Assembly (NCBI RefSeq): GCF_018336915.1
Contig: NZ_CP064923.1
Span: forward strand, 2,820,001-2,852,000
DNA length: 32,000 nt
Direction of reading: 5' to 3'
DNA from: Acaryochloris marina S15
GTDB lineage: Bacteria; Cyanobacteriota; Cyanobacteriia; Thermosynechococcales; Thermosynechococcaceae
Numbering within the stretch: the stretch's first letter is position 1; the number at the start of each line of letters is the position of its first letter. A program made the translations under genes and the position numbers. The notes below the pieces were generated by a model that made no database searches, was not told the origin of the DNA, and was given only the letters and a program-made list of their open reading frames with translations. Positions 6,249 through 21,910 of the stretch are shown here, piece after piece.

Positions 6249-7490
6249 ATGTTGGATTTTGATGCGCTGGTCATTGGGGCAGGCCCCGCTGGGATGATTA
6301 TTGCGGCGGCTTTGGCCGAGCAAGGCATCAAGGTTGGCGGCCTAACTGCTAGTCCGCTGCGGCAAGTCTGGCCGAATACCTACGGTATCTGGCGCGATGA
6401 ACTCGAAGCTCTGGGATTGACGGAATTATTAGGGCATTGTTGGGAAAACTGTGTCTCCTATTTTGGTAAAGGGGAAGTCAACCACGGTCGCGCCTACGGT
6501 TTATTCGATAAAGTCAAGCTGCAAAACCATCTGCTGGCCCAATGCGAAACCGGGGGCGTGGAATGGCAGCAAGGTAAGGCCATAAATATCGAGCACGATC
6601 ACAAACGCTCGATCGTCACGACTGCGGCAGGTGAAACCATACATGCCAGGGTGGTGATTGATGCCAGCGGCCACAATCCGATGTTTATCAAGCGGCAACA
6701 GCAGGAGGCAGTAGCATTTCAAACGGCCTATGGTATCGTCGGTCATTTTTCCGCACCCCCCGTCAATCCACAACAATTCGTGCTTCAGGATTTTCGCAGC
6801 GAGCATTTATCGGCCACTGAACGCGCCACCGAGCCGCCGACCTTTCTCTATGGGATGGATTTTGGTAATGATGTCTATTTTGTGGAAGAGACATCCCTGG
6901 CGATGGCACCTGCCGTCAGCTTTGAACTACTAGAGCGACGCTTGCACCAACGATTAGCCGCCCGCGGAGTTCAGGTGACTGCGATCCATGAGGTGGAACG
7001 CTGCATCTTTCCGATGACACTTCCCCTGCCGGATCTCCATCAACCCGTGGTGGCCTTTGGTGGTGCTGCGAGCATGGTACATCCCGCTTCGGGGTATATG
7101 GTCGGGGCGCTGCTGCGCCGTGGGCCTAGTTTGGCTGCAGCTATTGCCACTAAACTCCAGGATACTCAAGCTGGACCAACCGTGATCGCTCAGGCGGCAT
7201 GGCAGGAGCTATGGAATCGAGATCGCCTGCGCAAGTACTATCTCTATCGGTTTGGCTTAGAAAAGTTAATGCGGTTTGATGAGGTGCTGTTAAAACAGCA
7301 TTTCGATACTTTCTTTAGTCTGCCCCGAGGTCAATGGTCGGGATTTCTGGCCGATACGCTATCGACACCAGCATTGGTAGCAGTGATGGTGCGCTTATTT
7401 GCCATTGCACCCAATTCCCTGCGCTGGGGTTTGCTTCAATTTCCCGGTAGGGAAAGCAATCTCCTCTGGCAATCTATCACCTCCAAATAG
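6249..7490 (+). CDS. crtL: lycopene cyclase, CrtL type (beta versus epsilon specificity not decidable here)
   Basis: 413-aa ORF. N-terminal FAD/NAD dinucleotide fold DALVIGAGPAGMIIAAALAEQG. Contains PTFLYGMDFGNDVYFVEETSLA, which resembles the conserved FLYxMPF...FxEETSL block of CrtL/CrtY-family cyclases. Length is typical of the family. Confidence 0.8.
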   Translation: MLDFDALVIGAGPAGMIIAAALAEQGIKVGGLTASPLRQVWPNTYGIWRDELEALGLTELLGHCWENCVSYFGKGEVNHGRAYGLFDKVKLQNHLLAQCETGGVEWQQGKAINIEHDHKRSIVTTAAGETIHARVVIDASGHNPMFIKRQQQEAVAFQTAYGIVGHFSAPPVNPQQFVLQDFRSEHLSATERATEPPTFLYGMDFGNDVYFVEETSLAMAPAVSFELLERRLHQRLAARGVQVTAIHEVERCIFPMTLPLPDLHQPVVAFGGAASMVHPASGYMVGALLRRGPSLAAAIATKLQDTQAGPTVIAQAAWQELWNRDRLRKYYLYRFGLEKLMRFDEVLLKQHFDTFFSLPRGQWSGFLADTLSTPALVAVMVRLFAIAPNSLRWGLLQFPGRESNLLWQSITSK

Positions 7491-7870
7491 CAAAATTGCC
7501 ACTAGCGGTTACTTCCACATTAGTAAGATAAGTTGCTAGTGCTTCACCCCAATGATCCTAGACGTCTGATGAAGATAAAATCTTTGATCCTTAGGTACTT
7601 CTCTGTCAGTTAACTCTTCGTAATCACTGTGGTGAAGTACTAGACTTAAAAGGATTATTTTTTGATGAATTATATTTCAGAAAGAATTGGCATCACTTTT
7701 GAGAAAATTTTTATGCCAATTTCTTGCAACATATTTAACTAATTAAAAGCTGTTTTATGGTGTTTTAGTTCTTCCTGGAACATTGCTTTTAGTTCTCATT
7801 TTTAAACATGGTTAACTAATTTATTCCTCAGCTGCTACTTATCTTTTGAAAATAGTCTGGGTCTTGAACC

Positions 7871-7886
7871 TGACTCAATTGAGTCA
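7871..7886. promoter_or_regulatory. perfect 16-bp palindrome TGACTCAATTGAGTCA, candidate operator or 5'-UTR hairpin
   Basis: The sequence is self-complementary over all 16 nt. It lies 4 nt upstream of a GGAG (7891-7894) and 16 nt upstream of the ATG at 7903 of the RTX-like gene, at the end of a ~400-bp AT-rich intergenic region. Confidence 0.3.
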
Positions 7887-7902
7887 CTATGGAGATCTAA
7901 AA

Positions 7903-9144
7903 ATGTCCTTATTATTACCTGGTAGTACCGACCCTTTATTTATTAGTGAATTTGAAGGGGCTGAGTTTTTTGGTAGTCCACAAGATGGCGGTGGAGCTTT
8001 TGCTGTTGGGCAGGAAGATACTACCAATCTTTTTGTGTTTGATGACACTAATGATGTTGCTGTAGGTGGTGATGAAGTTGATATTTTTATGGCCAATGGC
8101 GGCGACGACAACATCATGGGAGCTGAAGGGACTGATTTCTTGTTTGGAGGATTTGGCGATGATATTGTCCGGGGCGGAGAAGGAGATGATGTGGTTGTTG
8201 GTAATGAAGGCTCAGATATCTTAATCAGCGGCAGTGGAAGCGATATCTATGAGTATTTTGCAGATCAGATCCTGCCTGGTGATCTAGATATCATCTTGGA
8301 TTTTGAGTCGGGCGAAGACGCTGTGGTGATTGTTGGTAGTACAGATATTAACTACGATAACTCGACTGGTTTTCTAACAGTGGATGGAACGACAGCAGCT
8401 GTTCTAGATGCAGGGTTAGAACTAGAGGTGTTGACGCGGGCTAATTCTTCCGTCGTCTTTGATGCGGGTGCAGATGTTTCTGGCTTTGGTGCCGCTACAG
8501 TTCCCGAAGAGACAGACGAGCAGCTAAGGGCAGACGCATTGGATAGTGAAGGGGAATATGAGGTGCTATCCATTGTGGATGCATCGCCTAGTCTGGCACC
8601 TGGGAGCACCGTTCCCCTATTTATCAGTAATTTTGAAGGGGCACAATTCTTTGATGCCCCTCAAGATGGGGGTGGCGTTTTTGCGGTGGGTCAAGAGGAC
8701 ACTACTAATATTTTCGTGTTTGGAGATAGTAACGATGTTGCTGCGGGTGGCGATGAAGTCGATATCTTTATGGCCAATGGTGGCGATGACAACATCATGG
8801 GAGCTGAAGGAACTGATTTCTTGTTTGGGGGCATCGGTGACGATATTGTCCGGGGCGGTGAGGGTGATGATGTGGTTGTTGGTAACGAAGGGTCTGATGT
8901 GTTGATTGGAGGGGCAGGGGCTGATATTTTTGAGTTTTTTGCTGACCAATTTGGCATCGGTGATCTCGATGTGGTGCTTGATTTTGAATCGGGTAGCGAT
9001 GCCCTGGTCATTGTCGGTAGTATAGATGCCAGCTACGATAGCGCAACCGGTTTTGTGGCTGTGGATGGCACTGAAGTCGCCACATTGGATGCTGGTCTAA
9101 ACCTGGATGTGCTGGTTCGAGGTAACTCTGCTGTCATTTCTTAA
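7903..9144 (+). CDS. acidic calcium-binding RTX (hemolysin-type nonapeptide) repeat protein, internally duplicated
   Basis: The track ORF starts at a TTG (7846). The in-frame ATG at 7903 is preceded by GGAG and is the more likely start. Each half carries six consecutive GxxGxDxUx nonapeptides: ANGGDDNIM GAEGTDFLF GGFGDDIVR GGEGDDVVV GNEGSDILI SGSGSDIYE. The protein is very D/E/G-rich, has no Cys and no N-terminal signal peptide. That profile fits a type I secretion substrate. Confidence 0.8.
   Translation: MSLLLPGSTDPLFISEFEGAEFFGSPQDGGGAFAVGQEDTTNLFVFDDTNDVAVGGDEVDIFMANGGDDNIMGAEGTDFLFGGFGDDIVRGGEGDDVVVGNEGSDILISGSGSDIYEYFADQILPGDLDIILDFESGEDAVVIVGSTDINYDNSTGFLTVDGTTAAVLDAGLELEVLTRANSSVVFDAGADVSGFGAATVPEETDEQLRADALDSEGEYEVLSIVDASPSLAPGSTVPLFISNFEGAQFFDAPQDGGGVFAVGQEDTTNIFVFGDSNDVAAGGDEVDIFMANGGDDNIMGAEGTDFLFGGIGDDIVRGGEGDDVVVGNEGSDVLIGGAGADIFEFFADQFGIGDLDVVLDFESGSDALVIVGSIDASYDSATGFVAVDGTEVATLDAGLNLDVLVRGNSAVIS
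7915..9141 (+). repeat. tandem intragenic duplication, period 681 bp (227 codons)
   Basis: Copy 1 core is 7915-8460 and copy 2 is 8596-9141, an exact in-frame offset of 681 nt. A ~135-nt acidic linker (8461-8595) is present only between the copies. My hand alignment of 8071-8220 against 8752-8901 gave about 19 mismatches in 150 nt. Confidence 0.9.
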
Positions 9145-9182
9145 GGTATCTATCTGGCCATCTTAGATTCCTGAGAAAACCT

Positions 9183-9230
9183 GAGCCCATGCCTACTATT
9201 GATATGAGGTATTGGGCTTGGGGCTTTTTC
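9183..9230 (+). terminator. possible intrinsic terminator after the RTX-like gene
   Basis: GAGCCCA (9183-9189) pairs with TGGGCTT (9213-9219), including one G-U pair. The loop is long and partly self-paired. GGGGCTTTTTC follows, with a T-run at 9225-9229. The structure starts 39 nt after the stop codon. The stem is weak. Confidence 0.35.
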
Positions 9231-9342
9231 TAGAAGGGATGTAGGATTTACCCAGAAAACGTATCACAGCAATAGCATTGCTATTCTGATCCATCCCCCA
9301 GCTTTGTTGTCAGTGATGCTGATTGGCTTGAGGCTTCAGTGA

Positions 9343-9543
9343 TTAGGGTGCAATAGAAATCGGAGCATTGCTGGTATTGTCCTGAACTGCAAATGTTTTA
9401 GTCGCAGAATGGGCAACAGAAACTGATCCTTGATATTGGGAGGGGGGCTCTAGAAAATCAGCATTAAGAATAAAGGAACTGAGGGAGAAACCCAGAGCGG
9501 CAAGGCAGGAAAGAGGAATAAGAGTCTGTTTAATGTCTGGCAT
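9343..9543 (-). CDS. small hypothetical protein with one hydrophobic N-terminal segment
   Basis: The track ORF is 9343-9624. An internal ATG at 9543 gives a 66-aa product, MPDIKQTLIPLSCLAALGFSLSSFILNADF..., with a signal-anchor-like hydrophobic stretch. I recognised no family and the coding status is uncertain. Confidence 0.3.
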   Translation of the reverse strand: MPDIKQTLIPLSCLAALGFSLSSFILNADFLEPPSQYQGSVSVAHSATKTFAVQDNTSNAPISIAP

Positions 9544-9734
9544 GGTTCCTTTGGAGCAGGCAACATCTCTAAAATAAGGCTCCTTTCTGAGACAACCCTG
9601 ATGCATGATTGAGGTCTTCAGCAATAATTCTGAACGCTTTCCAGATTTTTGATGAGAAAGCTGAAAATTATCGTTGGGACAACTGATTACTCATTGGCTG
9701 GAGATTCTTTACTTTATCTGTGGGCTAGGAGCAA

Positions 9735-12700
9735 TTGGGGGAGTCTACAGTAGCATTTGAGAATGCCAGTCAGAAGAGGTCAGTTGATATGACTACTGAA
9801 GTTCGTTCAGACGGGCATCAGAGTTTGCTCAGATCTGATTTACCGAAGCAGGAGCGGCTGCTAGCAGGGGTCGCTGAGGCCACAAGGCAACTATTAGCGA
9901 TCGCAGATTTTGATACGGCAGTTAATGGAGCCCTGGAAGCGATCGCAATCGCGACTGAAATAGATCGCATCTTTATCTATCGGAACCACTCAGAGCTGGG
10001 GACCCACAGAGAATTTGCGTCTTGTCCTTATGAATGGACAGTAACAGGGGTGGTTAAAGCGAGTGAGCTCCTGAATCAATTTCCGCTGTTTTACGACGAA
10101 ATTGATGGGTACAGCGATTGGCTGTCTGAATTGAAGGCAGGCCAACCTGTACAAAAGCTCGCACGGGAAATGTCAGAGGTAGGACAGGACAAACAGATAC
10201 AGGAACAAGCACTGTCAGTACTCACTGTTCCAATTTTTGTAGAGGGTGACTATTGGGGAAACTTTGGCTTTGATGACTGCACCACCGAACGGATGTGGAG
10301 CAAGGTAGAAATTGCAGTACTGGAGACGGCAGCAGCGAGCTTTGCAGGGGCACTAGAGCGGCAGAATAACCTAGCAGAACTAGAGCGGCAAGATGCTTTG
10401 CTCAAAAGCGTAAACGCGGCAACACAGCGCTTAGTTACAACGAGCGAGCTAAAGCAGGCGATTCCAGAGGCGTTACGAATTTTGGGTGAGGGGGCGCATC
10501 AGGATCGAGTATATGTATTTGAGAATGTATTTCCCCAAGGGCCAGATCAGGTGTTTTGGGATATTCCCTACGAATGGGTAAATACAGGAATTCCAACTTG
10601 TGCAGTAACGGCCACTGAATGGCCCATTGCGATGGCTTCTTTCCCGCCAAGTATAAACAATTCTTTACGCTCTGGACAAGTAACTCAGCTTTTAACCAGC
10701 GATTTGCAAGGTAAAGCTCAGCACATCAATGAAGAAGGCCAAACGTTGTCCTTGCTTGCCGTGCCGATCACAGTTGCTAGCCAATGGTGGGGGGTATTGG
10801 GATTTGACGACTGCACAACAGAGCGTGAGTGGAGTGATGCAGAAATAGCCGTTTTAGAAACTGCAGCTGCTTGTATAGGCAGTGCCATTGAGCGTGACAA
10901 CGCCCGCAAGGAGAAAGAGACTGCTGCCCAAGCTCGTGTTGCTGAGTTGGCAGAACGAGATCGCATCTTGGAAGCAACGGCTGCCGCTGCCAATGTCATG
11001 CTTACCGAGGACGATTTCGACCAAGCCGTTAAAGCCGCGCTTCAAATCGTAGGGGAAGGTTTAGAGGTCGATCGCATTAACTTAGGACAATATTTCGAAG
11101 CAACTTCACCACAAGATGTTAGCTACCACGACATGAGCGACTATGAATGGACCTCGGCCCAAACTATACTCCAATCGGAGCATCCTGAGTTCTCTAGAAT
11201 TAGCGATGCAGGCATAGAGTTTATGCTGGAGACGTTGCATAGGGGTGAAGTCTTTGGTGGCATTGTAGAAGAACTCCCTGAGCCCTTTCGTAGCAGTCAA
11301 CTTGCTCTAGGCGTACAGTCTACCTACGCAGTCCCCATTCGAGTTGATGGTAGGTATTGGGGCCTGATTGGTTTTGACGATTGCCATCATCTAACACGGC
11401 GGAGTGAGGCAGAACTTGAGGCTCTAATAACGCTGGCGAATTGTATTGGTAATGCCATTGAGCGTGAGCGAGAACGCCAGGAAAAAGAAGCGACTGCTGC
11501 AGCCCGACTGACGGAGTTAGCTGAACGTGATCGCATCTTGGAAACCACGGCTACTGCCGCCAATGTCATGCTGACGGACGAAGATTTTAATACTGCTGTC
11601 CATACTGCTTTGGCAATCGTAGGCAACGGTTTAGAACTGGATCGAGTTTTGCTCGGAAAGCATGTGGATACCGTATTGGCTCAAGAACCAAACTACATCC
11701 AGTTCTTATATGAATGGGTGGCTGAAGGAACAAACCTGCAGACAGAACATCCTGAATTGGTAAAAATTAGCAATGAAGGACTGGAGTTGATCTATGAAGC
11801 ATTAAGCCGAGGCAAAATTTTTGGAGGAATTGTTGATGAGCTGCCAGATCCGTTTCGCACGGGTCAGAAAGAGTTAGGAGTCCAATCGACTTACTCTATA
11901 CCGATTATGGTGGAGGGTGATTATTGGGGCATTATTGCGTTAGACGATTGCCGTCATCTGACACGACGCAGCGAAGCTGAACTTGAAGCATTGAAAACAT
12001 TAGCGAATTGTATTGGCAATGCGATTGAGCGTGATCATACTCGCAAGGAAAGAGAGGCTGCTTCTCAGGCTCGTGGGGCTGAGTTGGAGACGCATAATCT
12101 GGAACTGGCAAGCCGCGATCGCATATTGGAAGCAACAGCAGCAGCCGCGAATGTTTTACTAACCGATGACGACTTTGAAGGGGCTTTTAATCGAGCCTTG
12201 CAAATTATTGGGGAAGCAGTGGGCACCGATCGGGTGGGACTTGCTCAACATCTTGCGTATATCACCGAGGCTGAACCAGGACATTGGCGACTAATTCATG
12301 AATGGCATGCCCCTGGGATTACCCCTGTCGCCCAAATCTTTTATCCAGAGCCCATGCAGGGAAGCTATGCCGGGGCTGAGCTGCTTTATGAAATGCATCA
12401 GCGGGGCGAAGGCTTTAGCTTAACCACAGCTCAGATGCTTGAACCCTTTCGCAGCAATATGGCAACGGTAGGTGTCCAAACTTTGCATGCAGTTCCCATC
12501 CTCTTGCATGATCAGTATTGGGGCACAGTGGTATTTGGCGACTGTCGCCAGCAACGGCAGAGAAGCTTAGCAGAGTTAGCAGCTTTGCAAACGGTTGCAG
12601 ACTGCATTGGCAATGCCATTGATCGCGATCGCAACCGCAAAGAAAGAGAAGCGGCAACCCAAGCCCGTGCAGCAGAGTTGAAAAAGAATAACGAAATTCT

Positions 12701-15700
12701 TTCCCTGCGAGATCGCTGGCTCAGTACAACGGCTGCAGCGACAGAAAAACTACTCTCAGAGAATGATCTAAAAAGTGCGGTCAAACCAGCTTTACAAGAA
12801 ATTGGTGAAAGTATAGGTGTTGACCGTATTGGCATTATGTATGTTTGTGAGCAGGACAGTCAGAAAGTTTTAGGGTTTTTTGAAGAGTGGATTCATCCTA
12901 GTCAGCCCGTTCAAAGTGAGAATGCAGAACTGTCAGCCATTCCTTGCCATCTAATTGGTGACCAGCACTTTAAAACTCTACTGGATGGACAATGGTACGG
13001 TGGCGATATTGAAGATTTTCCTGAGCCTTTCCGCAGCAGTCAAAAGGAGATTGGTGTCCAGTCTACCTATTCAGTCCCCATCTTTATTGATAGTCAGTTT
13101 TGGGGACTAGTTGGTATTGACCACTGCCGAAAGAAGAAGCTGTTAACTAAAACAGAGATTGCTGTTTTTCAAACTATTGCAAGTTGTTTTGCCAGTGCTA
13201 TTCAACGGGACCAGATTCGCAAAGCTCGTGAAGCTGCCGAACGCACTGCCTTGATTGAGGGTGAACGTGCAGCCCGTGCGGCTGAGCTAGAAGCTGCAAA
13301 CCAAGTGCTAACAACTCGCGATCGCTGGTTACAGACCACAGCCGCCGCCACCAATCAGCTTTTGTCTACTGCCGATATTTCGAGGGGGGTCAACACGGCC
13401 CTCCAAACCCTGGGTACTAATTTAGAGAGCGATCGCTTAGGCGTTATGCGCCATGTTCCTGATGCCACCGAACTTGGTTCTTTCCAAATCCTTTATGAAT
13501 GGGATGCAGCGGGAACTACTGCCCAAATCGATCATCTCGAACTTTATCAAATGCCTGCCAGTGACTTTGCCGACTGGACGCGCCATTTGATGATGGGTCA
13601 ACCCGTCGGTGGTCCTATTGAAGAGCAATCCGACCCTTTTCGCACCAAAATGCGGAGCCTAGGCACTCTATCCGCCTATGCTGTCCCTATTTTTATTGAG
13701 ACGGAGTTCTGGGGCGTGATGTTTATGGACTATTGTCGTAGTTCACGGCAGCTTGCTCCTGCTGAGTTAGCTGTATTTAATACTGCCGCTACCTGTATTG
13801 GTGGTGCCATTCATCGAGAACAGATGAGATGTGATCGCGAACAGGCCGAACGCGATGCTCTCTTACAGCAAGAACGGCAACAGGCAGCTCAGAGAAGGGC
13901 CACAACCCTAGAAACCCATAACCAACAGCTTCAACAGCGAGATCGGCTTCTCAATAGTGTCAATGCTGCTGCCCAGTCCTTGGTTGCTAATGAAGACCTG
14001 GATACAGCGCTGCCCACGATGCTGCAAATCTTGGGCGAGGGGACCGGCCAGTGTCGGGCCTATATTCTGCGGAATTCCCAGGACGAGCAAACTGGCAAAT
14101 TGCTATTCAACCTGATGCTGGAGTGGGATGCACCCCATATCCCTACCAAAATGGAGGTTGGGGCTCGATTCCCGGTTCCCATTCATCACTTCCCTGAGCA
14201 TCTAACCGCTCCCCTCAAAGCAGGACGGGCAACTCAATTCCTCGCTAGTGAGTTGGACAGTATCAGCCCAGCAGAACGACAGCCCGGACAGGCCCTTTCC
14301 CTTGTAGGGGTTCCCATTTGGGTTGATGGTGAATGGTGGGGATTATTAGGACTCGATGATTGTGTTGAAGAGCGGATCTGGAGCGATGCAGAAATTGCAG
14401 TCTTAGAAACCGCAGCAACTGCAGTGGGGGGTGCTTTGGAGCGTGATCGCAGCCGTCAAGATCGTGAAGCCGCAGAGCGGACTGCGTTGATTGAGCGAGA
14501 ACGGGCGGCCCGTGCAGATGAATTGGAAGCTACGAACCAAGTTCTCCAGACCCGTGAACGCTGGTTAGAAACGACAACTACTGCTGCCAATGTGCTTCTG
14601 TCTGGTACTGATGTATCTGTGAGTGTCAACGCAGCTTTACAGACCATCGGTGAGAATCTGGAATGCGATCGCGTTTTTGTTATGCAGGGGATGGCAAAAC
14701 CAAACGGCTCTGCTGACGAACTTGGCTTTGCTTGCTTAACCCATGAGTGGTGCTCAGAGGGGCTGGAACACCACATTAATATCCCTCAAATTGCAAAAGT
14801 TCCGGTTGAGAGATTTAAGGAGACCCTGGAGCAGATAGGCGATAGGCAATGGATTGGTGGCATCGTTGATGAATTAACAGAGCCGATGCGTAGTTACCAA
14901 CAGTCTCTGGGTGTTAAATCTATGTACTCTGTTCCAGTGTTTGTGAACGGCAAGGCATGGGGGTTGGTCGGTATAAATCACTGCCGGGAGGCTAAACGGA
15001 TCAGCCAATCAGAACTTGCAGTGTTTCAAACAGCTGCAAACTGTATTGGCAGAGCCATTTATCAAGAGATGGCCCGACGTGATCAGGCAGCTCAGGAACG
15101 GGCAAAGCTATTGGGGGCAGTTGCTGAAGCAGCGAATCTATTGCTGCGTTCAGCAGACTATACAAAAGTGTTGCCGGAGGTGGTGCGGCTGTTGGGTGAG
15201 GCGGTGGAGTGCGATCGCTGTGGTATCGGCCAGGATGTAATGGACCCAAACTCTCATCAATCAGTTGCCAGCATCAAATTAGCATGGGAATGGAGACATC
15301 CTGCTAGAGCATACCATTGGGACCACCATTGCACTTACACAGACAAAATTTTTTACTGGGAACATACCCCTTTTATTTACGAAGCTTTAAGAATGGGGCA
15401 AGTTGTTAATACCTGCATCGCTGATTTACCTGAACCTGATCGAAGTTCCTTATCAACCCTTGGCCTTTTAGCACAGTGCTTTGTCCCCATTGCTGTAGAA
15501 CAAAAACTTTGGGGCTTTTTTAACTTTGATAACTATGGTGAATCTCGGCTTTATGATGAGGCAGATATTGCGATTTTGCGGGTGGCGGCAGAAAGTATTG
15601 CAGCGGCAATTGCACGGCAGTCTCAAGATGAAGCATTGCGCAGATCAGAACAAGCTATTCTTGCGGAAAAAGAAAAAGCAGCAAGAGAGCGGGCAGCAGA

Positions 15701-17468
15701 GCTGGCAAAGACAAATGAGGCGATTGGTCGAGCCCTTGTCGCTCTCACCGAAACACCTGAGCTAGGTGAATTTTTAGGGCAAATCTTAACTCAAATGATC
15801 AATCAAGTTGAGGCCTGCAAAGCTCATCTATTTTTGTATGACGAAGAGTCAGATACATTGAATCAATATATGGCTGTTCAGGATGGGCAGGTTTATCAAG
15901 GCGCGGCTCCAACCGATCCAGACATGTTTCGCCGTCCTGTTCCGTCCAAGATTTCCAACGCTTGGGAGATGATAGTCAACTCTCCTAAACCCTTTACGCT
16001 AGATGAGCGCCACCCTGAAGCTGCAGAAGCCTATTGGCCGGAATCTATTCCCTGGCATCAGGCGGAAGGACATATTTCCTCTACCTGCGCCTGCATGAAG
16101 GTGGGAGGAAAACCCATTGGTTTTATCGGTTTTGCCTTCCGCCACGTTGCCGTCCTCAGCAACGAACAACTAGAGTTTATTCAATCCCTGACCAACCAAG
16201 CGACCCTCTCCATTCACCTGACTCGTCTGGCGGAAAAAGCCAAACAAGCTGCTATTGCACAGGAACAAGAACATGCTGCTCGAGAACGAGCGGTTGAGTT
16301 AGCTAAGACCAATGAGGCTATTTCAAAAACGCTAGATGTACTGACAACAACTCCAGAACTCAACGAATTTCTAGGTCAAATTTTGACCCAAATTATTGAG
16401 CAAATTGGGGCAGATGATACCCACCTATTTTTGTATGATGCCGAGACTCATACGTTGCGATCGCAACTTGCAGTCCAAAGCGATACCGTTTACTTAGGAA
16501 ATGCCCCTGGTGACCCTGAACTCTTCTACACAGATATTCCTGCTGATATCACAGCGGCTTGGCAAATTCTTATCAAATCCGGCAAGCCCTTTACTTTAGA
16601 CGATCAAAATCCTGAAGCAGCAGAATTTCTCTGGCCGACAACCCAAAAGTGGCACGATGCCCGAGGGCATCAATCCGCCACCTGTGCCTGCATGAAAATT
16701 GGCAACCAACCCATAGGATTTATTGGATTTGCCTTTTGCGATCGCACCATCCTCAGCACTGAACAGCTTGAATTTGTCCAAGCCCTCACCAACCAAGCCA
16801 CCCTCGCCATTCACCTCACCCGCCTTGCTGAACAGGCTCGGACCAATGCCCTCACCGATGAGCGTAATCGCCTCGCCCGCGAAATTCACGATACCCTAGC
16901 CCAGGCCTTCACGGGCATCTCTCTCCAGCTCGAAGCTGCCAAAAATATCTTGGTCCAACAGCCCGAAACCGCAAAGAGCTACCTAGACCAGGCCCGTGAC
17001 TTAACCCGTCAGGGCCTATCTGAAGCTCGTCGTTCCGTTCATGCCCTGCGCTCCCAAGCCTTGGAGACCGAATCCCTAGTCAGGGCTCTCCAGAAAAGTC
17101 TCACCCAGATGACCCTCAATACATCCCTACAGACTGAATTCCAACTTCAAGGGACTCCTACTCTTCTTGAGGAGGGGCTACAGCTCAATCTCCTTCGTAT
17201 TGGGCAAGAGGCCATTACCAACGCCCTCCGCCATGCCCAGGCCCAAACCCTCACTGTTACTCTGACCTTTACAGACCAACAGGTTAGTCTTGGTATCGTG
17301 GATGATGGTGTGGGCTTTGAACCCCAAGATGCGGCTGATATAACGGGATTTGGACTAGTGGGCATTCATGAACGAACGGCCCGTTACAAAGGCCAAGTCC
17401 AGATTATGAGCCAGCCGGGTAAAGGAACCTCTATTGAAGTGACTCTGCCCACCCAGCTTAAGGGGTAA
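9735..17468 (+). CDS. giant soluble multi-GAF sensor histidine kinase (12 GAF domains + HisKA_3 + HATPase_c)
   Basis: 2,577-aa ORF. The track start is a TTG at 9735, with AGGAG 3 nt upstream. An alternative ATG lies at 9789. Ten GAF modules end in [YFWL]WG-x-h-x-h-D-[DHN]-[CY]; the WG positions are near nt 10251, 10783, 11353, 11919, 12513, 13095, 13704, 14331, 14955 and 15507. Two further GAF modules belong to a different subfamily, with KPIGFIGFAF near 16113 and 16710. Modules are joined by Ala/Glu/Arg-rich helical linkers. The C-terminus has the HisKA_3 H-box NRLAREIHDTLAQ (His codon 16887-16889) and HATPase_c motifs (ITNALRHA, DDGVGF, GFGLVGIHER). I saw no transmembrane segment and no PAS domain. 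Confidence 0.9.
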   Translation: MGESTVAFENASQKRSVDMTTEVRSDGHQSLLRSDLPKQERLLAGVAEATRQLLAIADFDTAVNGALEAIAIATEIDRIFIYRNHSELGTHREFASCPYEWTVTGVVKASELLNQFPLFYDEIDGYSDWLSELKAGQPVQKLAREMSEVGQDKQIQEQALSVLTVPIFVEGDYWGNFGFDDCTTERMWSKVEIAVLETAAASFAGALERQNNLAELERQDALLKSVNAATQRLVTTSELKQAIPEALRILGEGAHQDRVYVFENVFPQGPDQVFWDIPYEWVNTGIPTCAVTATEWPIAMASFPPSINNSLRSGQVTQLLTSDLQGKAQHINEEGQTLSLLAVPITVASQWWGVLGFDDCTTEREWSDAEIAVLETAAACIGSAIERDNARKEKETAAQARVAELAERDRILEATAAAANVMLTEDDFDQAVKAALQIVGEGLEVDRINLGQYFEATSPQDVSYHDMSDYEWTSAQTILQSEHPEFSRISDAGIEFMLETLHRGEVFGGIVEELPEPFRSSQLALGVQSTYAVPIRVDGRYWGLIGFDDCHHLTRRSEAELEALITLANCIGNAIERERERQEKEATAAARLTELAERDRILETTATAANVMLTDEDFNTAVHTALAIVGNGLELDRVLLGKHVDTVLAQEPNYIQFLYEWVAEGTNLQTEHPELVKISNEGLELIYEALSRGKIFGGIVDELPDPFRTGQKELGVQSTYSIPIMVEGDYWGIIALDDCRHLTRRSEAELEALKTLANCIGNAIERDHTRKEREAASQARGAELETHNLELASRDRILEATAAAANVLLTDDDFEGAFNRALQIIGEAVGTDRVGLAQHLAYITEAEPGHWRLIHEWHAPGITPVAQIFYPEPMQGSYAGAELLYEMHQRGEGFSLTTAQMLEPFRSNMATVGVQTLHAVPILLHDQYWGTVVFGDCRQQRQRSLAELAALQTVADCIGNAIDRDRNRKEREAATQARAAELKKNNEILSLRDRWLSTTAAATEKLLSENDLKSAVKPALQEIGESIGVDRIGIMYVCEQDSQKVLGFFEEWIHPSQPVQSENAELSAIPCHLIGDQHFKTLLDGQWYGGDIEDFPEPFRSSQKEIGVQSTYSVPIFIDSQFWGLVGIDHCRKKKLLTKTEIAVFQTIASCFASAIQRDQIRKAREAAERTALIEGERAARAAELEAANQVLTTRDRWLQTTAAATNQLLSTADISRGVNTALQTLGTNLESDRLGVMRHVPDATELGSFQILYEWDAAGTTAQIDHLELYQMPASDFADWTRHLMMGQPVGGPIEEQSDPFRTKMRSLGTLSAYAVPIFIETEFWGVMFMDYCRSSRQLAPAELAVFNTAATCIGGAIHREQMRCDREQAERDALLQQERQQAAQRRATTLETHNQQLQQRDRLLNSVNAAAQSLVANEDLDTALPTMLQILGEGTGQCRAYILRNSQDEQTGKLLFNLMLEWDAPHIPTKMEVGARFPVPIHHFPEHLTAPLKAGRATQFLASELDSISPAERQPGQALSLVGVPIWVDGEWWGLLGLDDCVEERIWSDAEIAVLETAATAVGGALERDRSRQDREAAERTALIERERAARADELEATNQVLQTRERWLETTTTAANVLLSGTDVSVSVNAALQTIGENLECDRVFVMQGMAKPNGSADELGFACLTHEWCSEGLEHHINIPQIAKVPVERFKETLEQIGDRQWIGGIVDELTEPMRSYQQSLGVKSMYSVPVFVNGKAWGLVGINHCREAKRISQSELAVFQTAANCIGRAIYQEMARRDQAAQERAKLLGAVAEAANLLLRSADYTKVLPEVVRLLGEAVECDRCGIGQDVMDPNSHQSVASIKLAWEWRHPARAYHWDHHCTYTDKIFYWEHTPFIYEALRMGQVVNTCIADLPEPDRSSLSTLGLLAQCFVPIAVEQKLWGFFNFDNYGESRLYDEADIAILRVAAESIAAAIARQSQDEALRRSEQAILAEKEKAARERAAELAKTNEAIGRALVALTETPELGEFLGQILTQMINQVEACKAHLFLYDEESDTLNQYMAVQDGQVYQGAAPTDPDMFRRPVPSKISNAWEMIVNSPKPFTLDERHPEAAEAYWPESIPWHQAEGHISSTCACMKVGGKPIGFIGFAFRHVAVLSNEQLEFIQSLTNQATLSIHLTRLAEKAKQAAIAQEQEHAARERAVELAKTNEAISKTLDVLTTTPELNEFLGQILTQIIEQIGADDTHLFLYDAETHTLRSQLAVQSDTVYLGNAPGDPELFYTDIPADITAAWQILIKSGKPFTLDDQNPEAAEFLWPTTQKWHDARGHQSATCACMKIGNQPIGFIGFAFCDRTILSTEQLEFVQALTNQATLAIHLTRLAEQARTNALTDERNRLAREIHDTLAQAFTGISLQLEAAKNILVQQPETAKSYLDQARDLTRQGLSEARRSVHALRSQALETESLVRALQKSLTQMTLNTSLQTEFQLQGTPTLLEEGLQLNLLRIGQEAITNALRHAQAQTLTVTLTFTDQQVSLGIVDDGVGFEPQDAADITGFGLVGIHERTARYKGQVQIMSQPGKGTSIEVTLPTQLKG

Positions 17469-17934
17469 AGTTTGGATTGAAATGTCGAATTAACCGCACA
17501 GTTCGTTGATATTCTTGCTGATTGCCCTGTTTGGCAAACAGCCCTGCGGCCCGTCTCAGATCGACCAACCCATTCGTTTGATCTCCCAAAGAGAGCCTGA
17601 CACTTCCCCGATACAGATAGGCTTCTGCGAATCGGGAGTCTCGCTGCACCGCATCATCAAAATCTTCTAGCGCCCCGAAGTCATCCTCCAGCTCAAACCG
17701 CACTTTTCCCCGATGGAAGTAGGGAGCGGCACTATCTGGATCGAGAAGAATTGCTTGGGTGAAGGTTGCGATCGCAGCTTGATAATTTCGCTGTTGTAGA
17801 TGAGCCTGCCCTTGACGAATTAAACCGGCAAGATTGTCCTCCAATGCGATAGCCGTCTTGGGGCCTAAAGTCAGCAGCAGCACCATCCCTAAACCGAATA
17901 GTTTGTTTGATTTCAACATTTTCCGATTCGCCAA
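17458..17934 (-). CDS. secreted TPR-repeat protein
   Basis: 158-aa ORF. N-terminal signal-peptide-like segment KLFGLGMVLLLTLGPKTAIALE, followed by TPR-like helices (YQAAIATFTQAILLDPDSAAPYFHRGKV, FAEAYLYRGSVRLSLGD). Its 3' end overlaps the 3' end of the giant kinase by 11 bp in convergent orientation. Confidence 0.75.
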   Translation of the reverse strand: MANRKMLKSNKLFGLGMVLLLTLGPKTAIALEDNLAGLIRQGQAHLQQRNYQAAIATFTQAILLDPDSAAPYFHRGKVRFELEDDFGALEDFDDAVQRDSRFAEAYLYRGSVRLSLGDQTNGLVDLRRAAGLFAKQGNQQEYQRTVRLIRHFNPNFTP

Positions 17935-18031: not shown

Positions 18032-18658
18032 ATGTCTCCACTCATCCGTCTCCTTGTCGTTGAAGATCACCCTGTTGTCCGCCATGGCATTATTGCTATC
18101 CTCAGTCAGGCCGAGGATATGGATGTGATTGCCGAAGCCGAAAACGGTTTAGAAGCCATTGACCAATACCAGAAGCATCAGCCTGATATCACCCTTATGG
18201 ATCTGCGGATGCCCCATCTCGAAGGGGTCGAAGCGATTGCCCGCATTCGAGCCAAAACCTCCAAAGCCCAGATCATCATTCTCACAACCTACGATACGGA
18301 CGAAGACATCTATCGGGGACTTCAGGCCGGAGCACGGGGTTATATTCTCAAAGACACCACAGCCACAGAACTGATCCATGCTATCCGCACTGTTCATGGT
18401 GGCAAACGCTACATTCCTTCAGAAGTCGCACTCAAACTAGCTGACCGGATTGACGATAGCGATCTCACGGATCGGGAACTCGAAGTTTTGCAACTCCTGA
18501 GCAAGGGGAACAGCAACCAAGAAATTGCCGCTGCCCTAACGATTTCCGAAGGGACCGTCAAGTTTCATATCAACAACATTCTTTCCAAATTGGGGGTCAA
18601 AGATCGCACTCAAGCGGTGATTGTAGCCTTAAAAAAAGGATTAGCCCGACTCGACTAG
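18032..18658 (+). CDS. NarL/FixJ-family response regulator (receiver + LuxR-type HTH)
   Basis: 208-aa ORF. Receiver motifs are LLVVEDHP, ITLMDLRMPHLEG, IIILTTY and YILKD. The C-terminal LuxR HTH reads LTDRELEVLQLLSKGNSNQEIAAALTISEGTVKFHINNILSKLGV. This family normally partners HisKA_3 kinases such as the one ending at 17468. Confidence 0.92.
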   Translation: MSPLIRLLVVEDHPVVRHGIIAILSQAEDMDVIAEAENGLEAIDQYQKHQPDITLMDLRMPHLEGVEAIARIRAKTSKAQIIILTTYDTDEDIYRGLQAGARGYILKDTTATELIHAIRTVHGGKRYIPSEVALKLADRIDDSDLTDRELEVLQLLSKGNSNQEIAAALTISEGTVKFHINNILSKLGVKDRTQAVIVALKKGLARLD

Positions 18659-18889: not shown

Positions 18890-19426
18890 ATGCCGCCGCC
18901 CTTACGCCCTTGCGATCATTATCAAGGTTCTCTCGATGAGGTTGTGACTCTCATCATCTATGGAGATTATCAATGTTCCCAGTCATCCCAAGCCTACAGA
19001 ACAGTCAACAATATTTTGAATACATCCACCCATCCCTTCTGTTTAGTCTATCGACACTTTCCCCAAACCCCACCCCATACTCCCGCGTGGAAGGCTGCCG
19101 AGGCGGCCGAGGCCGCCTCAGCTCAGGGGAAGTTTTGGGAGATGCATGACCTCTTATATCAGCATTCAGCAAGCTTAGAAGATGACAAACTGGTCGAGTA
19201 TGCGGTCGAGATTGGCCTTCATATTCCCCACTTTCTTAAAGGTCTCACTAGCCATACCCATACTGCGCAAGTACAGGCTGATGTGGACAGTGGGATTGCT
19301 AATGCAGTCAAAACCCCGCCTACTGTCTTGATTAGTATTCGCTGTCAAAAAAGTCAATCCTTAGAACCCCTCCTTTCTAAGGTGAAAGAGATTGCTGCAC
19401 TGACTCAATCTAAAGATAGTTCTTAA
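18890..19426 (+). CDS. DsbA/thioredoxin-fold family protein with degenerate CxxS active site
   Basis: 178-aa ORF. IYGDYQCSQSSQAY sits where this family normally has YGDYxCPxCxxxx. AAEAAEAASAQGKFWEMHDLLY is the family's conserved helical block. No signal peptide is visible. Confidence 0.7.
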   Translation: MPPPLRPCDHYQGSLDEVVTLIIYGDYQCSQSSQAYRTVNNILNTSTHPFCLVYRHFPQTPPHTPAWKAAEAAEAASAQGKFWEMHDLLYQHSASLEDDKLVEYAVEIGLHIPHFLKGLTSHTHTAQVQADVDSGIANAVKTPPTVLISIRCQKSQSLEPLLSKVKEIAALTQSKDSS

Positions 19427-19650
19427 ACGGTGACTCAGAATTATTTTAAAGAATGAATTTCTATAATTTTTCAATTAATTTGAAGATTAGACTTCATAAC
19501 TTCTTTCACTAATGCTAGAAACTTTTGCCTGGGAGACCAACTCAGTACACGTCTTAAACAGTCATATTAAGTCTAACTCCCCATTTTCCTGCCTCAGGTT
19601 TGTACAAGAGTATTGCCTTCTCAGTCGTTCAAACTCAGCAGAGACTTTAC

Positions 19651-20487
19651 ATGAGCATTCAAGAGCAATTAGAGCAGCCGTTTTATAAACTGGAAGGCTT
19701 CTCCTTTTATGCCGCTAACGAACCCCCGACTTGTTATGAGGAACATCGTCACGATGAACTCGAAATATGTTTAATGCTCAATGACGCAGCCGCACAGGTC
19801 GAGTGGCTGCCAACAGATGGTGGATCAAAATATCGCCAAATCTCTGCCGATAAGCTCTGTATTATTCCATCTCACCATTCCCACACCCTTGCCTGGGACA
19901 TGCCTGCAGACTACATTTTAATCTTTTTGCATCCGAGCTTTGTTCTCCAAACCACCTATGAATGGACCCTGAGTCGCTCCGTTCAGTTTGAAGGCCAATA
20001 TGCCATTTCCGATTCACTGATTCATTCCCTCGCCCTAACCATGCGCTCCGCCTTTGACAACCAGGAATTTATTGATCATCTCTACATTGATTCCTTGGTC
20101 AACGTATTAGCAATGTATCTCCTCAAAGCCCACTCGGATTGTCAGTCTGTTATCAGTAACTCTCCTCGACCTCAGAGGTGGTTGCGACAGACCCTTGACT
20201 ATATTCATGATTCCCTCGGGCAAGATCTGCGACTATCAACCCTGGCAAATATTGCCCAAATGAGTGAGAGCAGTTTTTGTCATCTTTTTAAGGAGCAGAT
20301 GAGTATCTCCCCCCACCAATATGTTATTCGCCAACGCATTGAGAAGGCCAGATTGCTGCTCATTGATAAGAAGTTACCGATTGTAGAGATTGCCTATGAC
20401 TGTGGCTTCAATAGTCAAAGTCATTTAACACTCTATTTCCGACAGCATGTTGGCATAACCCCCAAGGCTTATCAAGATGCTCATTAA
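19651..20487 (+). CDS. AraC-family transcriptional regulator (cupin-like N-domain + AraC HTH)
   Basis: The track ORF starts at a TTG (19600); I used the first in-frame ATG at 19651. The C-terminal double HTH reads LSTLANIAQMSESSFCHLFKEQMSISPHQYVIRQRIEKARLLL ... IAYDCGFNSQSHLTLYFRQHVGITPKAYQ. The N-terminal part is His-rich and cupin-like. Confidence 0.85.
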   Translation: MSIQEQLEQPFYKLEGFSFYAANEPPTCYEEHRHDELEICLMLNDAAAQVEWLPTDGGSKYRQISADKLCIIPSHHSHTLAWDMPADYILIFLHPSFVLQTTYEWTLSRSVQFEGQYAISDSLIHSLALTMRSAFDNQEFIDHLYIDSLVNVLAMYLLKAHSDCQSVISNSPRPQRWLRQTLDYIHDSLGQDLRLSTLANIAQMSESSFCHLFKEQMSISPHQYVIRQRIEKARLLLIDKKLPIVEIAYDCGFNSQSHLTLYFRQHVGITPKAYQDAH

Positions 20488-20548
20488 TGCCAGACTAGGG
20501 CAGGAAATCAGGTGAAATTTTCCGACCTTTTTTCTGGGAAATTGGAAA

Positions 20549-20585
20549 GAGGTTAAGGTCATTCCTTAAGTTCTCCCTTAACCTC
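20549..20585 (+). terminator. 10-bp perfect stem-loop between the two AraC genes (possible terminator or attenuator)
   Basis: GAGGTTAAGG (20549-20558) and CCTTAACCTC (20576-20585) are exact reverse complements separated by a 17-nt loop. The structure starts 61 nt after the stop of the first AraC gene. The following sequence (ATTATCTTG) is only weakly U-rich. Confidence 0.3.
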
Positions 20586-20628
20586 ATTATCTTGACGCAC
20601 AAACTGTAAGGACTATTGCTCAATAGGA

Positions 20629-20650
20629 AGATTGTTTGTAGAAACAATCT
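20629..20650 (+). promoter_or_regulatory. 9-4-9 perfect palindrome AGATTGTTT-GTAG-AAACAATCT abutting the start codon of the second AraC gene
   Basis: The arms at 20629-20637 and 20642-20650 are exact reverse complements. The element ends 3 nt before the ATG at 20654 and overlaps the purine-rich AGGAAG (20625-20630), the only Shine-Dalgarno-like sequence there. It could be a dimeric-repressor operator or a hairpin that occludes the translation initiation region. Confidence 0.35.
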
Positions 20651-20653
20651 CCC

Positions 20654-21589
20654 ATGAACCCCAATGAGGATTTTTGCTCTCCTGATGAAGATTCACCGAT
20701 CTGCTCCGTCAACTGCGGCGATCCAGACTCTATTCTCCAAATTTGTCCTGAACGCCCTCAACTCTCTAGTCAGGCAGCTGGGTGGGATGGACTCATTCTT
20801 AAAGAACACCATCAACCGGCTCATACCACACCAGCCCATGAGTTCACTCAGCATGTATTAATCCTTTCGCCCTTGGATGAAGAATTTGAGGTGGAGTATC
20901 AGTTAGGAGAGCTATCCTTTCAGGGACCCTATGGCAATGGGGAGATTATGATTATTCCAGCCCATACCCGCCAGCAGTGTCAGTGGCATCAGGGGGTAAA
21001 GTTTCTCAGCCTTAGCCTCGAACCTCAATTTTTCGAGACGGCTGCTTATGATTTAACAACTGTAAATCGCTTTGAATTACTGCCGAATATTGCTGTTCAA
21101 GATCGTTTGATCTATGACATTGGCACGGCCTTACGGCAAGAACTCAATACTCTCGACCTCGCGGATCACCTGTATGTTGACTCCCTAGTCACCGCCTTAT
21201 CCATCCATTTGATGAAACGGTATTGTGCTCAAGTTCCCCGCATCAGTGATCCCTCTGACAAAGGCTTGTCCCCAGTGCTGTTGAGTCGGGCATTGGCATA
21301 TATCAACGATCAATTGGATCAAAATCTGAAATTAGTGGATCTTGCCAAAGAAGTAGGCATGAGTCGTTATTACTTTTCACGACTGTTTAAGAAATCTATG
21401 GGGATTGCCCCTCACCAGTACGCCATTAAGCAGCGCATCGAAAAAGCTAAGCGGTTGCTGAAGCAATCGAATATCCCCATCGCCATGATTGCTCAACAGT
21501 GTGGTTTTACCAATCCGAGCCACTTGAGCAAATATTTTCGTCAACTCACCGGAGTTACCCCAAAAGCCTTTCGAGACCAATATCGTTGA
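20654..21589 (+). CDS. AraC-family transcriptional regulator, paralogue of the upstream gene
   Basis: 311-aa ORF. The C-terminal AraC double HTH reads LVDLAKEVGMSRYYFSRLFKKSMGIAPHQYAIKQRIEKAKRLL ... IAQQCGFTNPSHLSKYFRQLTGVTPKAFR. It aligns colinearly with the preceding gene, for example HLYIDSLVNVLAMYLLK against HLYVDSLVTALSIHLMK. Confidence 0.88.
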   Translation: MNPNEDFCSPDEDSPICSVNCGDPDSILQICPERPQLSSQAAGWDGLILKEHHQPAHTTPAHEFTQHVLILSPLDEEFEVEYQLGELSFQGPYGNGEIMIIPAHTRQQCQWHQGVKFLSLSLEPQFFETAAYDLTTVNRFELLPNIAVQDRLIYDIGTALRQELNTLDLADHLYVDSLVTALSIHLMKRYCAQVPRISDPSDKGLSPVLLSRALAYINDQLDQNLKLVDLAKEVGMSRYYFSRLFKKSMGIAPHQYAIKQRIEKAKRLLKQSNIPIAMIAQQCGFTNPSHLSKYFRQLTGVTPKAFRDQYR

Positions 21590-21694
21590 GTTGAGAATGA
21601 GTGCAAGATCGTAATAGTACCTGCAGGAATATAAAAGATCTTTATCCGGTTAACTTTGTATTCTAAAGTCATTGGCATCACACCCAGAGGTCAA

Positions 21695-21734: not shown

Positions 21735-21910
21735 CCCAATATACAAAGTGCTTCGGGTGTCATCTCATCAATGGGTGATAGCTCCGGATACTTGCCCCTA
21801 ATGTTTCTGTTAATTTCTAAAACATAAAAGCTATCGAGAATTTTATGGAGGTGATCAACAGCAATACAATTAGTAAAAAAACAGCACTTTATTTATTGTT
21901 TATGGCTAAG

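Follow-up and report, generated by a model that had tools for sequence, protein, structure and literature searches.

Gene and domain architecture

The gene examined here lies in a 32,000-nucleotide (nt) stretch of Acaryochloris marina S15 (contig NZ_CP064923.1, positions 2,820,001 to 2,852,000; the whole stretch is hereafter called the window) and encodes a poly-GAF sensor histidine kinase, in which twelve GAF modules are arranged in tandem ahead of a HisKA_3 and a HATPase_c domain. When read from a TTG, it forms an uninterrupted open reading frame (ORF) of 2577 codons plus stop on the plus strand (9735..17468). All four syntenic orthologues examined (L003-L006) begin at the base equivalent to an ATG at 9789, a GAGG is present 9 nt upstream of this ATG, and the flank identity between the window and the orthologues runs exactly to 9788, so that the kinase probably starts at ATG 9789 and has 2,559 amino acids (aa). 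Positions of modules, domains and residues (such as His2385) are given below in the TTG-based numbering.

The Pfam family GAF (PF01590) was matched in 12 separate stretches of the protein (E 1e-101, 337 bits against a cut-off of 22.4) and PF13185 in 9 stretches, and the C-terminal core was matched by HisKA_3 (PF07730, 65.9 bits) and HATPase_c (PF02518, 50.3 bits), which bears out the domain order proposed in an earlier, sequence-only reading of this DNA. The same reading had seen no PAS domain, receiver or transmembrane segment; the Pfam search indeed returned no PAS, receiver or further sensor family, and a membrane helix is not expected at the highest 19-residue Kyte-Doolittle mean found (1.36). 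The kinase is predicted to be soluble and cytoplasmic. Only partial, sub-threshold NCBIfam matches were obtained (for example NifA, 121 bits versus 529; MadS, NarQ and LiaS over the kinase core), and no curated family claims this protein. The modules, which were delimited by conserved motifs and by hidden Markov models (HMMs) built from the modules themselves, fall into two classes, type A (modules 1-10) and type B (modules 11-12). The features of the gene are listed below.

9735..17468, plus strand: whole ORF, poly-GAF HisKA_3 sensor histidine kinase; TTG start, 2577 codons plus stop
9789..9791, plus strand: probable true start ATG (Met19 of the TTG-numbered ORF), supported by the orthologue starts, with GAGG 9 nt upstream
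9858..10370, plus strand: GAF module 1, type A, aa 42-212; N-terminal cap type, Cys182, without the second Cys
10398..10901, plus strand: GAF module 2, type A, aa 222-389; Cys360 and Cys380
10965..11471, plus strand: GAF module 3, type A, aa 411-579; Cys550 and Cys570; modelled with flanking helices
11535..12038, plus strand: GAF module 4, type A, aa 601-768; 61% identity to module 3
12123..12635, plus strand: GAF module 5, type A, aa 797-967
12717..13214, plus strand: GAF module 6, type A, aa 995-1160
13326..13823, plus strand: GAF module 7, type A, aa 1198-1363
13947..14450, plus strand: GAF module 8, type A, aa 1405-1572; module 1/2 subtype, retaining the "ER.WS..EIAVLETAA" motif
14562..15071, plus strand: GAF module 9, type A, aa 1610-1779
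15108..15623, plus strand: GAF module 10, terminal type A, aa 1792-1963; Tyr1934 replaces the conserved Cys
15702..16235, plus strand: GAF module 11, type B, aa 1990-2167; "PIGFIGFAF" motif
16299..16832, plus strand: GAF module 12, type B, aa 2189-2366; C-terminal helix continuous with the helix of the following dimerisation/phosphotransfer (DHp) domain in the model
16860..17060, plus strand: HisKA_3 DHp domain, aa 2376-2442; phospho-acceptor His2385 is codon 16887-16889
17181..17456, plus strand: HATPase_c catalytic ATP-binding domain, aa 2483-2574

Module classes, spacing and linkers

The number of twelve modules given in the sequence-only reading stands, but the modules are not all of one kind. 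Type A modules are 24-61% identical to one another in protein sequence and the two type B modules share 61% identity, and no BLASTP similarity was detected between the two classes, whose kinship appears at the profile level alone (hhalign probability 94%). Module starts are spaced by 180-207 aa, i.e., 540-621 nt, in good agreement with the period of 530-630 nt noticed before. The linkers consist of 23% Ala, 18% Arg and 17% Glu, and the AlphaFold model of module 3 described below shows them as helices, in line with the Ala/Glu/Arg-rich helical linkers noted before.

From the N-terminus onwards, the linkers of the kinase measure 10, 21, 21, 28, 28, 37, 41, 37, 12, 26 and 21 residues. Linker lengths in the wider family fall in discrete classes (10/12/21/28/37/41), and the linker between two type B modules is 21 residues long in 66 of 69 family cases. 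Such discrete lengths fit a rigid helical connection between successive modules.

GAF fold, kinship and loss of the bilin-attachment site

A profile built from the ten type A modules was compared with all PDB sequences, among which cyanobacteriochrome GAFs ranked first: the top matches were miRFP670nano (6mgh, 1.6e-10, nearly full length) and 6oap (6.8e-10), followed by NpR6012g4, Slr1393g3, TePixJ and RcaE, and then by knotless phytochromes (Cph2 and SyB-Cph1). NifA and cGMP-phosphodiesterase (PDE) GAFs scored merely E 0.02-0.25 with the same profile. The type B profile matched the GAF of SyB-Cph1 (2.5e-8), Cph2, and then GAF-A of DevS/DosS (1.5e-4). Kinship with cyclic nucleotide-binding GAFs (PDE2/5/10, CyaB1/2) was not found, with an E of 0.25 between type A and a cGMP-PDE GAF, and with the type B profile matching CyaB2 (1ykd) over its N-terminal helix alone (residues 3-64).

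Fold models were obtained for two of the twelve modules. Module 3 with its flanking linkers, modelled with AlphaFold from an alignment of 60 family modules, had a predicted local distance difference test score (pLDDT) of 96 and a predicted template modelling score (pTM) of 0.87, and its GAF core lies between a 35-residue N-terminal helix (residues 2-36) and a 44-residue C-terminal helix (residues 170-213). Foldseek comparison of this model with the PDB gave a probability of 1.00 to many GAF structures, the top ones being 6ob8/6oap, AnPixJg2 (3w2z), miRFP670nano3, TePixJ and JSC1_58120g3, followed by phytochromes. Module 12, modelled together with the kinase core (overall pLDDT 81), showed the same order of GAF elements. 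Pfam, both models and Foldseek thus agree that the modules are GAF folds, as the sequence-only reading had assumed, and since the type A profile, Foldseek and the type B profile all lead to the same relatives, both module types can be assigned, by profile and predicted structure, to the phytochrome/cyanobacteriochrome branch of GAF domains.

Despite this descent, the site at which these relatives attach their chromophore has not been kept. Column counts were made on 322 type A modules drawn from 49 family proteins. HMMER aligned the bilin-binding "TECH" of 6oap ("TECY" in miRFP670nano) with the module motif "SEPF(R)", in which Pro replaces Cys. None of the 322 modules has Cys in the canonical bilin-Cys column, where Pro (183 modules), Ala, Ile, Ser or Val stands instead; next to it, Phe, Ala or Glu is found in place of His. 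Similarly, the "PCH" of SyB-Cph1 was aligned with "P-T/E-T/S" in type B. The position of the pocket Asp (the "VEDQYF" of 6oap, in the DXCF/DIP segment) is not conserved, being His, Tyr, Asn, Ile or gapped, in a loop whose alignment is modestly reliable. As the bilin-attachment Cys is absent in both types, the modules are probably not conventional photosensors.

A conserved Cys and a Cys pair in type A modules

The WG-x-h-G-h-D-x-C motif is found in modules 1-10, with Cys in modules 1-9 and Tyr in module 10, exactly as the sequence-only reading had noted (a conserved Cys in nine of the first ten modules and Tyr in the tenth). This Cys, at the end of strand 5, is kept in 309 of the 322 family modules (96%). 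HMMER aligned it with a non-chromophore Cys of the cyanobacteriochrome 6oap ("LWGLLVVNQC"), whose bilin Cys lies elsewhere, and because of this alignment the strand-end Cys appears to be an inherited feature of the lineage rather than a chromophore anchor. The earlier suggestion that it could be a redox or ligand-attachment site is thereby narrowed: it is not the canonical bilin anchor, the position of which is occupied by Pro, whereas a redox or ligand role may still apply.

Exactly 20 residues after the first Cys, a second one is present in the C-terminal helix ("TAAxCIGxAI"). The resulting Cys-x19-Cys pair was observed in seven of the ten type A modules of the kinase and in 186 of the 322 family modules (58%), the second position being Ser or Ala in the other 42%. 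The second Cys was rare where the first was missing (2 of 13 modules, versus 186 of 309), although these counts ignore shared ancestry. The identity of a module follows its place in the array: the opening one is always without the second Cys, the internal ones carry the pair, and the terminal type A module is a variant of its own. Nine residues are near-invariant (91-100%) in internal modules (Arg37, Glu60, Trp61, Pro123, Trp131, Gly132, Asp137, Cys139 and Glu149). Judging from the strand order of GAF domains, the near-invariant DR (strand 1), EW (end of strand 2) and D-D-C (end of strand 5) would lie at one edge of the sheet, near the attachment of the helices.

Kinase core and helical continuity

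The HisKA_3/HATPase_c core, which the sequence-only reading had placed at the C-terminus, is catalytically complete by its sequence. Its "AREIHDTLAQ" aligns with "ARDLHDTLGQ" of DesK, so that the phospho-acceptor His corresponds to His188 of DesK, and the N, G1 and G2 boxes of HATPase_c ("EAITNALRHA", "DDGVGF" and "GFGLVG") are all present in the alignment to DesK. The AlphaFold model of module 12 and the kinase core was built from 25 sequences, and in it a single 64-residue helix (model residues 175-238) joins the last helix of module 12 to DHp helix 1, which carries the phospho-acceptor His. The helical continuity in these monomer models fits a relay along a helical spine.

Concerning the long dimeric rod of helical linkers that had been proposed, the part on helices is supported by the models, in which long helices join modules and the helix from module 12 to DHp is continuous, whereas dimerisation can reasonably be inferred rather than read from the results. 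Heptad analysis of the linkers gave a weak signal (hydrophobic fraction at a/d positions of 0.52-0.71, versus a background of 0.37-0.52), and a proven coiled coil is not claimed.

Distribution of the family and variation in module number

Homologues with the general architecture [A]n[B]m-HisKA_3-HATPase_c and 4 to 15 modules were found in Acaryochloris, Synechococcus sp. PCC 7335, Leptolyngbya, Phormidesmis and many marine cyanobacterial metagenome-assembled genomes (MAGs). In NCBI they are named merely "GAF domain-containing protein", with one A. thomasi member automatically named DegS. When the type A profile was run against 1.84 billion representatives (clusters at 50% identity), 1,682 proteins were detected at E ≤ 1e-30. 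Output domains among 53 other type A proteins were HisKA_3 plus HATPase_c alone, in 26 of the 53, and none of the 53 sampled proteins contained GGDEF, EAL, MCP or HisKA. Literature searches returned no paper on this kinase family or on poly-GAF HisKA_3 kinases, although such work may still exist. P0117, a protein of 1,917 aa in which 8 type A GAFs were matched, carries the label of a Verrucomicrobiota MAG; either the type A module may not be strictly cyanobacterial, or that bin may be contaminated.

The same gene order as in the window was found in four other contigs, whose orthologous genes are as follows.

L003, 6652..15567: 14 modules
L004, 5001..13241: 13 modules
L005 (A. marina NIES-2412), 5001..13274: 13 modules
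L006, 997..10440: 15 modules

The window gene itself has 12 modules, and unrelated chains with 10-12 GAF matches were also found in the representative scan; the view that a dozen GAFs in one chain is at the extreme is wrong for this family, in which a syntenic orthologue reaches 15. The flanks of the orthologous loci are 95-99% identical to those of the window (98.6-99.5% over the 3-kb flanks of L003 and L004), and within the gene L003 swaps a 328-nt stretch of the window for ~1.56 kb of sequence below 80% identity, while the final 1.95 kb of the gene in L004 is just 83% identical to the window. When the modules are compared one at a time, stretches at 98-100% identity are interspersed with modules at only 28-60%, and counterparts of these "foreign" modules, at 84-92%, are present in other alleles and in shorter members of the family that appear to be paralogues. 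The simplest reading of these comparisons is that recombination or gene conversion moves whole modules. The array would then be evolutionarily plastic, with internal modules gained, lost and exchanged between alleles and paralogues.

It might be argued that the repeats were collapsed, expanded or chimerised during assembly, so that the number of modules cannot be trusted; the gene is indeed repetitive, module numbers differ between related assemblies, and three of the loci compared come from short-read Logan contigs. However, exact internal repeats reach 15 nt at most in the window gene and no more than 23 nt in the four orthologues, below usual assembly k-mers, so that repeat collapse or chimerism is excluded; the best internal DNA repeat reaches just 72% over 187 nt, every version has a single intact frame, and the independent NCBI assembly GCA_052827785.1 contains the same kind of mosaic. 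An assembly artefact is accordingly rejected as having next to no probability, and the doubt about the repeat count, which the sequence-only reading had marked for verification, is answered, the modules being only 24-61% identical in protein.

Another gene of this type was found in A. marina MBIC11017 (L001; NC_009925, 6346599-6364529), where an ORF at 6010..11982 encodes 1,990 aa with nine modules in the pattern AABAAAAAB. None of the window neighbours (crtL, RTX, TPR, regulator, thioredoxin and AraC genes) is present within 6 kb of it, and it was therefore rejected as an orthologous locus and treated as a paralogue or relocated copy. The syntenic gene with 12-15 modules was not found in MBIC11017 with the window-specific peptide patterns used; this type strain may lack the orthologous locus or carry a very divergent form of it. 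Besides L001, the scan of a genome collection with these peptides gave just a 1.5-kb Reyranella contig (L002, E 6e-4), which was spurious and was ignored. A plasmid origin of the variability was also rejected, as PLSDB contains no Acaryochloris plasmid with a match to 25 kb of the window, and the sole match was a 72-nt piece of gnd in Bradyrhizobium.

Genomic neighbourhood

Upstream of the kinase gene lie a lycopene cyclase gene (crtL), an RTX-repeat protein gene and a small conserved minus-strand ORF; downstream follow, in order, a TPR gene, a NarL/LuxR regulator, a thioredoxin/DsbA-like gene, two AraC regulators and genes for a 6-phosphogluconate-dehydrogenase-like protein, glucose-6-phosphate dehydrogenase and fructose-1,6-bisphosphatase. 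Neighbouring features of the window are listed below.

17458..17934, minus strand: small TPR protein, convergent with the kinase gene and overlapping its 3' end by 11 nt
18032..18658, plus strand: NarL/LuxR-type response regulator (receiver plus GerE helix-turn-helix), with the acceptor Asp in "MDLRMP" and all receiver residues
220..669, minus strand: stand-alone receiver
689..2356, minus strand: hybrid kinase with a single GAF (HisKA/HATPase_c/receiver)
2353..5883, minus strand: 1,176-aa protein with ~11 WD40 repeats, of the STAND-type NTPase/WD40 architecture usual in large genomes of cyanobacteria; the orthologue in L005 gives an NB-ARC match as well
7846..9144, plus strand: RTX calcium-binding repeat protein with an apparent internal duplication (near-identical halves, e.g. 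"FEGAEFFGSPQDGGGAFAVGQEDTTN..." repeated), in a region of strong GC skew (+0.35)
9343..9624, minus strand: small ORF of 93 aa from TTG in the 644-nt gap upstream of the kinase; an 87-aa gene is called at this place in L003 and L005, with no Pfam match on record
18890..19426: thioredoxin/DsbA-like gene
19600..21589: two tandem AraC-family regulators
21590..22665: ~1 kb without any ORF of at least 100 aa and with the lowest G+C in the window (0.41); the corresponding gap in L003 contains small predicted genes (35 and 58 aa)
22666..26206, plus strand: genes for the 6-phosphogluconate-dehydrogenase-like protein, glucose-6-phosphate dehydrogenase and class I fructose-1,6-bisphosphatase

The response regulator gene stands 563 bp downstream of the kinase gene, an arrangement kept in five syntenic loci (the window and L003-L006), in all five of which the TPR and regulator genes are adjacent; in the window a 97-nt divergent intergenic region lies between the two. 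NarL/LuxR-type regulators are the expected partner class for a HisKA_3 kinase, and judging from gene position and receiver residues this one is probably the phosphorylation partner. A regulatory link of the kinase to the carbohydrate-oxidation genes is also possible. No Rfam matches were found in the window, and promoter and terminator predictions in 9100-9900 and 17300-18900 were no more numerous than in shuffled controls.

Comparison with known systems

By function, the closest known system is the DosS (DevS)/DosT pair of Mycobacterium tuberculosis, soluble kinases with the domain order GAF-GAF-HisKA_3-HATPase_c whose NarL-type regulator is DosR, and the protein described here is a variant of such DosS-like soluble GAF–HisKA_3 kinases with an unusually long, evolutionarily fluid and bilin-less GAF array. 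Both are soluble, have tandem GAFs directly upstream of the HisKA_3 core and have a NarL-class partner (putative here); the ATP-binding domain matches DevS (3zxo) at 5e-9 and DosT (3zxq) at 1e-8, beside the match of the type B profile to DevS GAF-A. Unlike DosS/DosT, the kinase has twelve GAFs instead of two, with no evidence for a haem-binding His, and its type A modules resemble cyanobacteriochromes more than DosS.

By descent, the GAFs are closest to those of cyanobacteriochromes and knotless phytochromes (the 6OAP dual-sensor kinase, AnPixJg2 3W2Z, TePixJ, NpR6012g4, SyB-Cph1 and Cph2), which are the best sequence-profile or structural matches for both module types. Cyanobacteriochrome GAFs and the modules have in common DR in strand 1, E-W in strand 2, VPI in strand 4, and LWGL...C plus R.W..EI from strand 5 into helix 5, and cyanobacteriochrome GAFs, too, are arranged in tandem in kinases of cyanobacteria. 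The differences are that Cys-His has become Pro-Phe in type A and Thr/Glu in type B, that the pocket Asp is not kept, and that the output of the type A family is always HisKA_3 where one was detected.

DesK of Bacillus subtilis, the structural prototype of HisKA_3 kinases, aligns with the core over ~200 residues (E 1.9e-17; Foldseek 2.6e-12), and in both proteins the signal would enter DHp helix 1 via a continuous helix (predicted here), although DesK senses by membrane helices, whereas here a GAF array feeds this helix and no membrane helix is found. Poly-HAMP arrays, such as those of Aer2 and fungal group III kinases (reviewed in PMC13446029), offer an analogy only: many copies of one modulatory domain are likewise placed on a helical backbone upstream of the output, but the four-helix HAMP fold differs from the α/β GAF fold and there is no sequence relationship. 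Hik2/CSK is a soluble cyanobacterial/chloroplast kinase with a redox-active [3Fe-4S] cluster on GAF-domain Cys (PMC6949291), and it resembles the present protein as a soluble kinase of cyanobacteria with a conserved GAF Cys, which in Hik2/CSK underlies redox sensing; by its description it is set apart by a single GAF, a HisKA-type core and a ligand Cys near the GAF N-terminus, while the conserved Cys here ends strand 5.

Proposed mechanism and alternative explanations

The reading that we favor, with a probability of roughly 0.62 for the account as a whole, is that of a cytoplasmic, soluble HisKA_3 kinase of the NarL-partner, DesK/DosS-like kind, in which twelve bilin-less GAFs relay signals along a helical spine to a NarL-type regulator. 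The C-terminal helix of each GAF would continue into the N-terminal helix of the following one, and the last GAF helix would run into the DHp helix that carries the phospho-acceptor His; because of this predicted continuity, the protein would most likely be a parallel homodimer on one long spine. Binding of a small ligand, or thiol/redox chemistry, may change one or more GAFs, and this change might be relayed along the spine and set the balance between kinase and phosphatase activities, which in turn would control phosphorylation of the adjacent NarL-type transcription factor.

Several observations weigh against this account. All of the closest structural relatives of the modules bind bilins, and the modules may do so in a non-covalent or non-canonical way. 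The linker classes do not all share a single heptad or hendecad phase, the weakness of the heptad signal has been mentioned above, and discrete linker lengths may stem from the shared ancestry of duplicated modules rather than from selection. The regulator is not co-transcribed with the kinase, since the convergent TPR gene stands between them, and in L006 the kinase and TPR genes are further separated by TetR and P450 genes, with the TPR-regulator pair intact. Moreover, the second two-component pair of the window (220-2356) may cross-talk with nearby components or be their true partner.

Among the alternatives, the kinase could be a multi-chromophore photoreceptor, in which type A GAFs bind bilin or another tetrapyrrole non-covalently or via the strand-end Cys, so that the rod would contain up to nine or ten light-sensing units. 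The 96%-conserved Cys is next to the strand position that faces the chromophore in phytochromes (compare phytochrome His290), every top relative in sequence and structure is a bilin-binding GAF, and some atypical cyanobacteriochromes use non-canonical Cys anchors. Acaryochloris also encodes many cyanobacteriochromes (PMC4302295 and PMC4876366). On the other hand, the canonical Cys is missing from all 322 modules together with its neighbouring His, the essential Asp ("EDQYF"/DXCF) is not conserved, and the genuine cyanobacteriochrome 6oap has the same strand-end Cys with its bilin attached elsewhere, which makes light sensing by the array quite improbable. It is also unlikely, if not to the same degree, that the array is a thiol/redox, metal or iron-sulfur sensor, in which the Cys pair, Asp-Asp and Glu would give every internal module a disulfide switch or a site for a metal or cluster, and the signals would be summed along the rod. 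This idea draws on the Cys-x19-Cys pair and the rarity of its second Cys without the first, on the near-invariant Asp, Arg, Glu, Asp-Asp-Cys and Glu at the ends of strands 1, 2 and 5 (presumed neighbours in the sheet), on the thioredoxin/DsbA-like gene at 18890..19426 and on the precedent of Hik2/CSK (PMC6949291). However, the first Cys is inherited from the cyanobacteriochrome lineage, the second is replaced in 42% of modules, their co-occurrence statistic ignores shared ancestry, and the ligand Cys19 of Hik2 sits elsewhere in the domain. The array thus differs from its precedent in the place of the Cys. To our knowledge, moreover, no redox role has been described for the strand-end Cys in the cyanobacteriochrome lineage.

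A bolder form of the redox idea, to which we give little credence, regards the internal type A modules as a Cys-dependent class of sensor GAFs derived from cyanobacteriochromes, whose Cys-x19-Cys and Asp/Glu site binds a redox cofactor or forms a disulfide; the kinase would then be an analogue "summing rod", with its gain tuned by gain, loss and swapping of modules, and this would explain why strains with 99% identical flanks have 12, 13, 14 or 15 modules. The same variation suggests that the exact count is seemingly not critical, which agrees with the equally doubtful proposal that the array is degenerate, most modules being ligand-free structural or dimerisation spacers and only one or a few (for example the first, the last, or the type B pair by the kinase) being sensory. 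Module identity depends on position, the internal modules with two Cys are those that vary in number, and the junction of type B modules and HisKA_3 is the most constant part, with its 21-residue linker in 66 of 69 cases. By contrast, internal modules keep their near-invariant residues at 91-100% and are full-length GAFs without decay, and all ORFs are intact at 2.5-3.1 thousand residues, which is not what spacers would suggest.

Implications

The kinase modules should not be filed as photoreceptors, because they fail the defining Cys test in spite of their cyanobacteriochrome descent. Size alone is unexceptional within this family; it is the lineage without the bilin Cys, the coupling to a single class of kinase and the swapping of modules that merit follow-up. 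The basic understanding of two-component signalling is unchanged, and the practical value of these findings is that of a lead.

If the preferred account is true, the family would represent a large uncharacterised branch of phytochrome/cyanobacteriochrome GAFs without the bilin site, with a strict residue signature and with wiring to HisKA_3 only where an output was detected, which would help both annotators of cyanobacteriochromes, for whom these modules are false positives, and those who search for new GAF ligands. Signalling along helical spines has usually been studied with one or two domains, as in phytochromes, LOV kinases and DosS, and the placement of 12 to 15 sensor domains before one kinase would provide a natural experiment on how far a signal can reach. 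Finally, the mosaicism of modules in near-identical Acaryochloris genomes would suggest rapid, cassette-like evolution of an intracellular sensor, a mode of evolution that is more familiar in surface or defence proteins.

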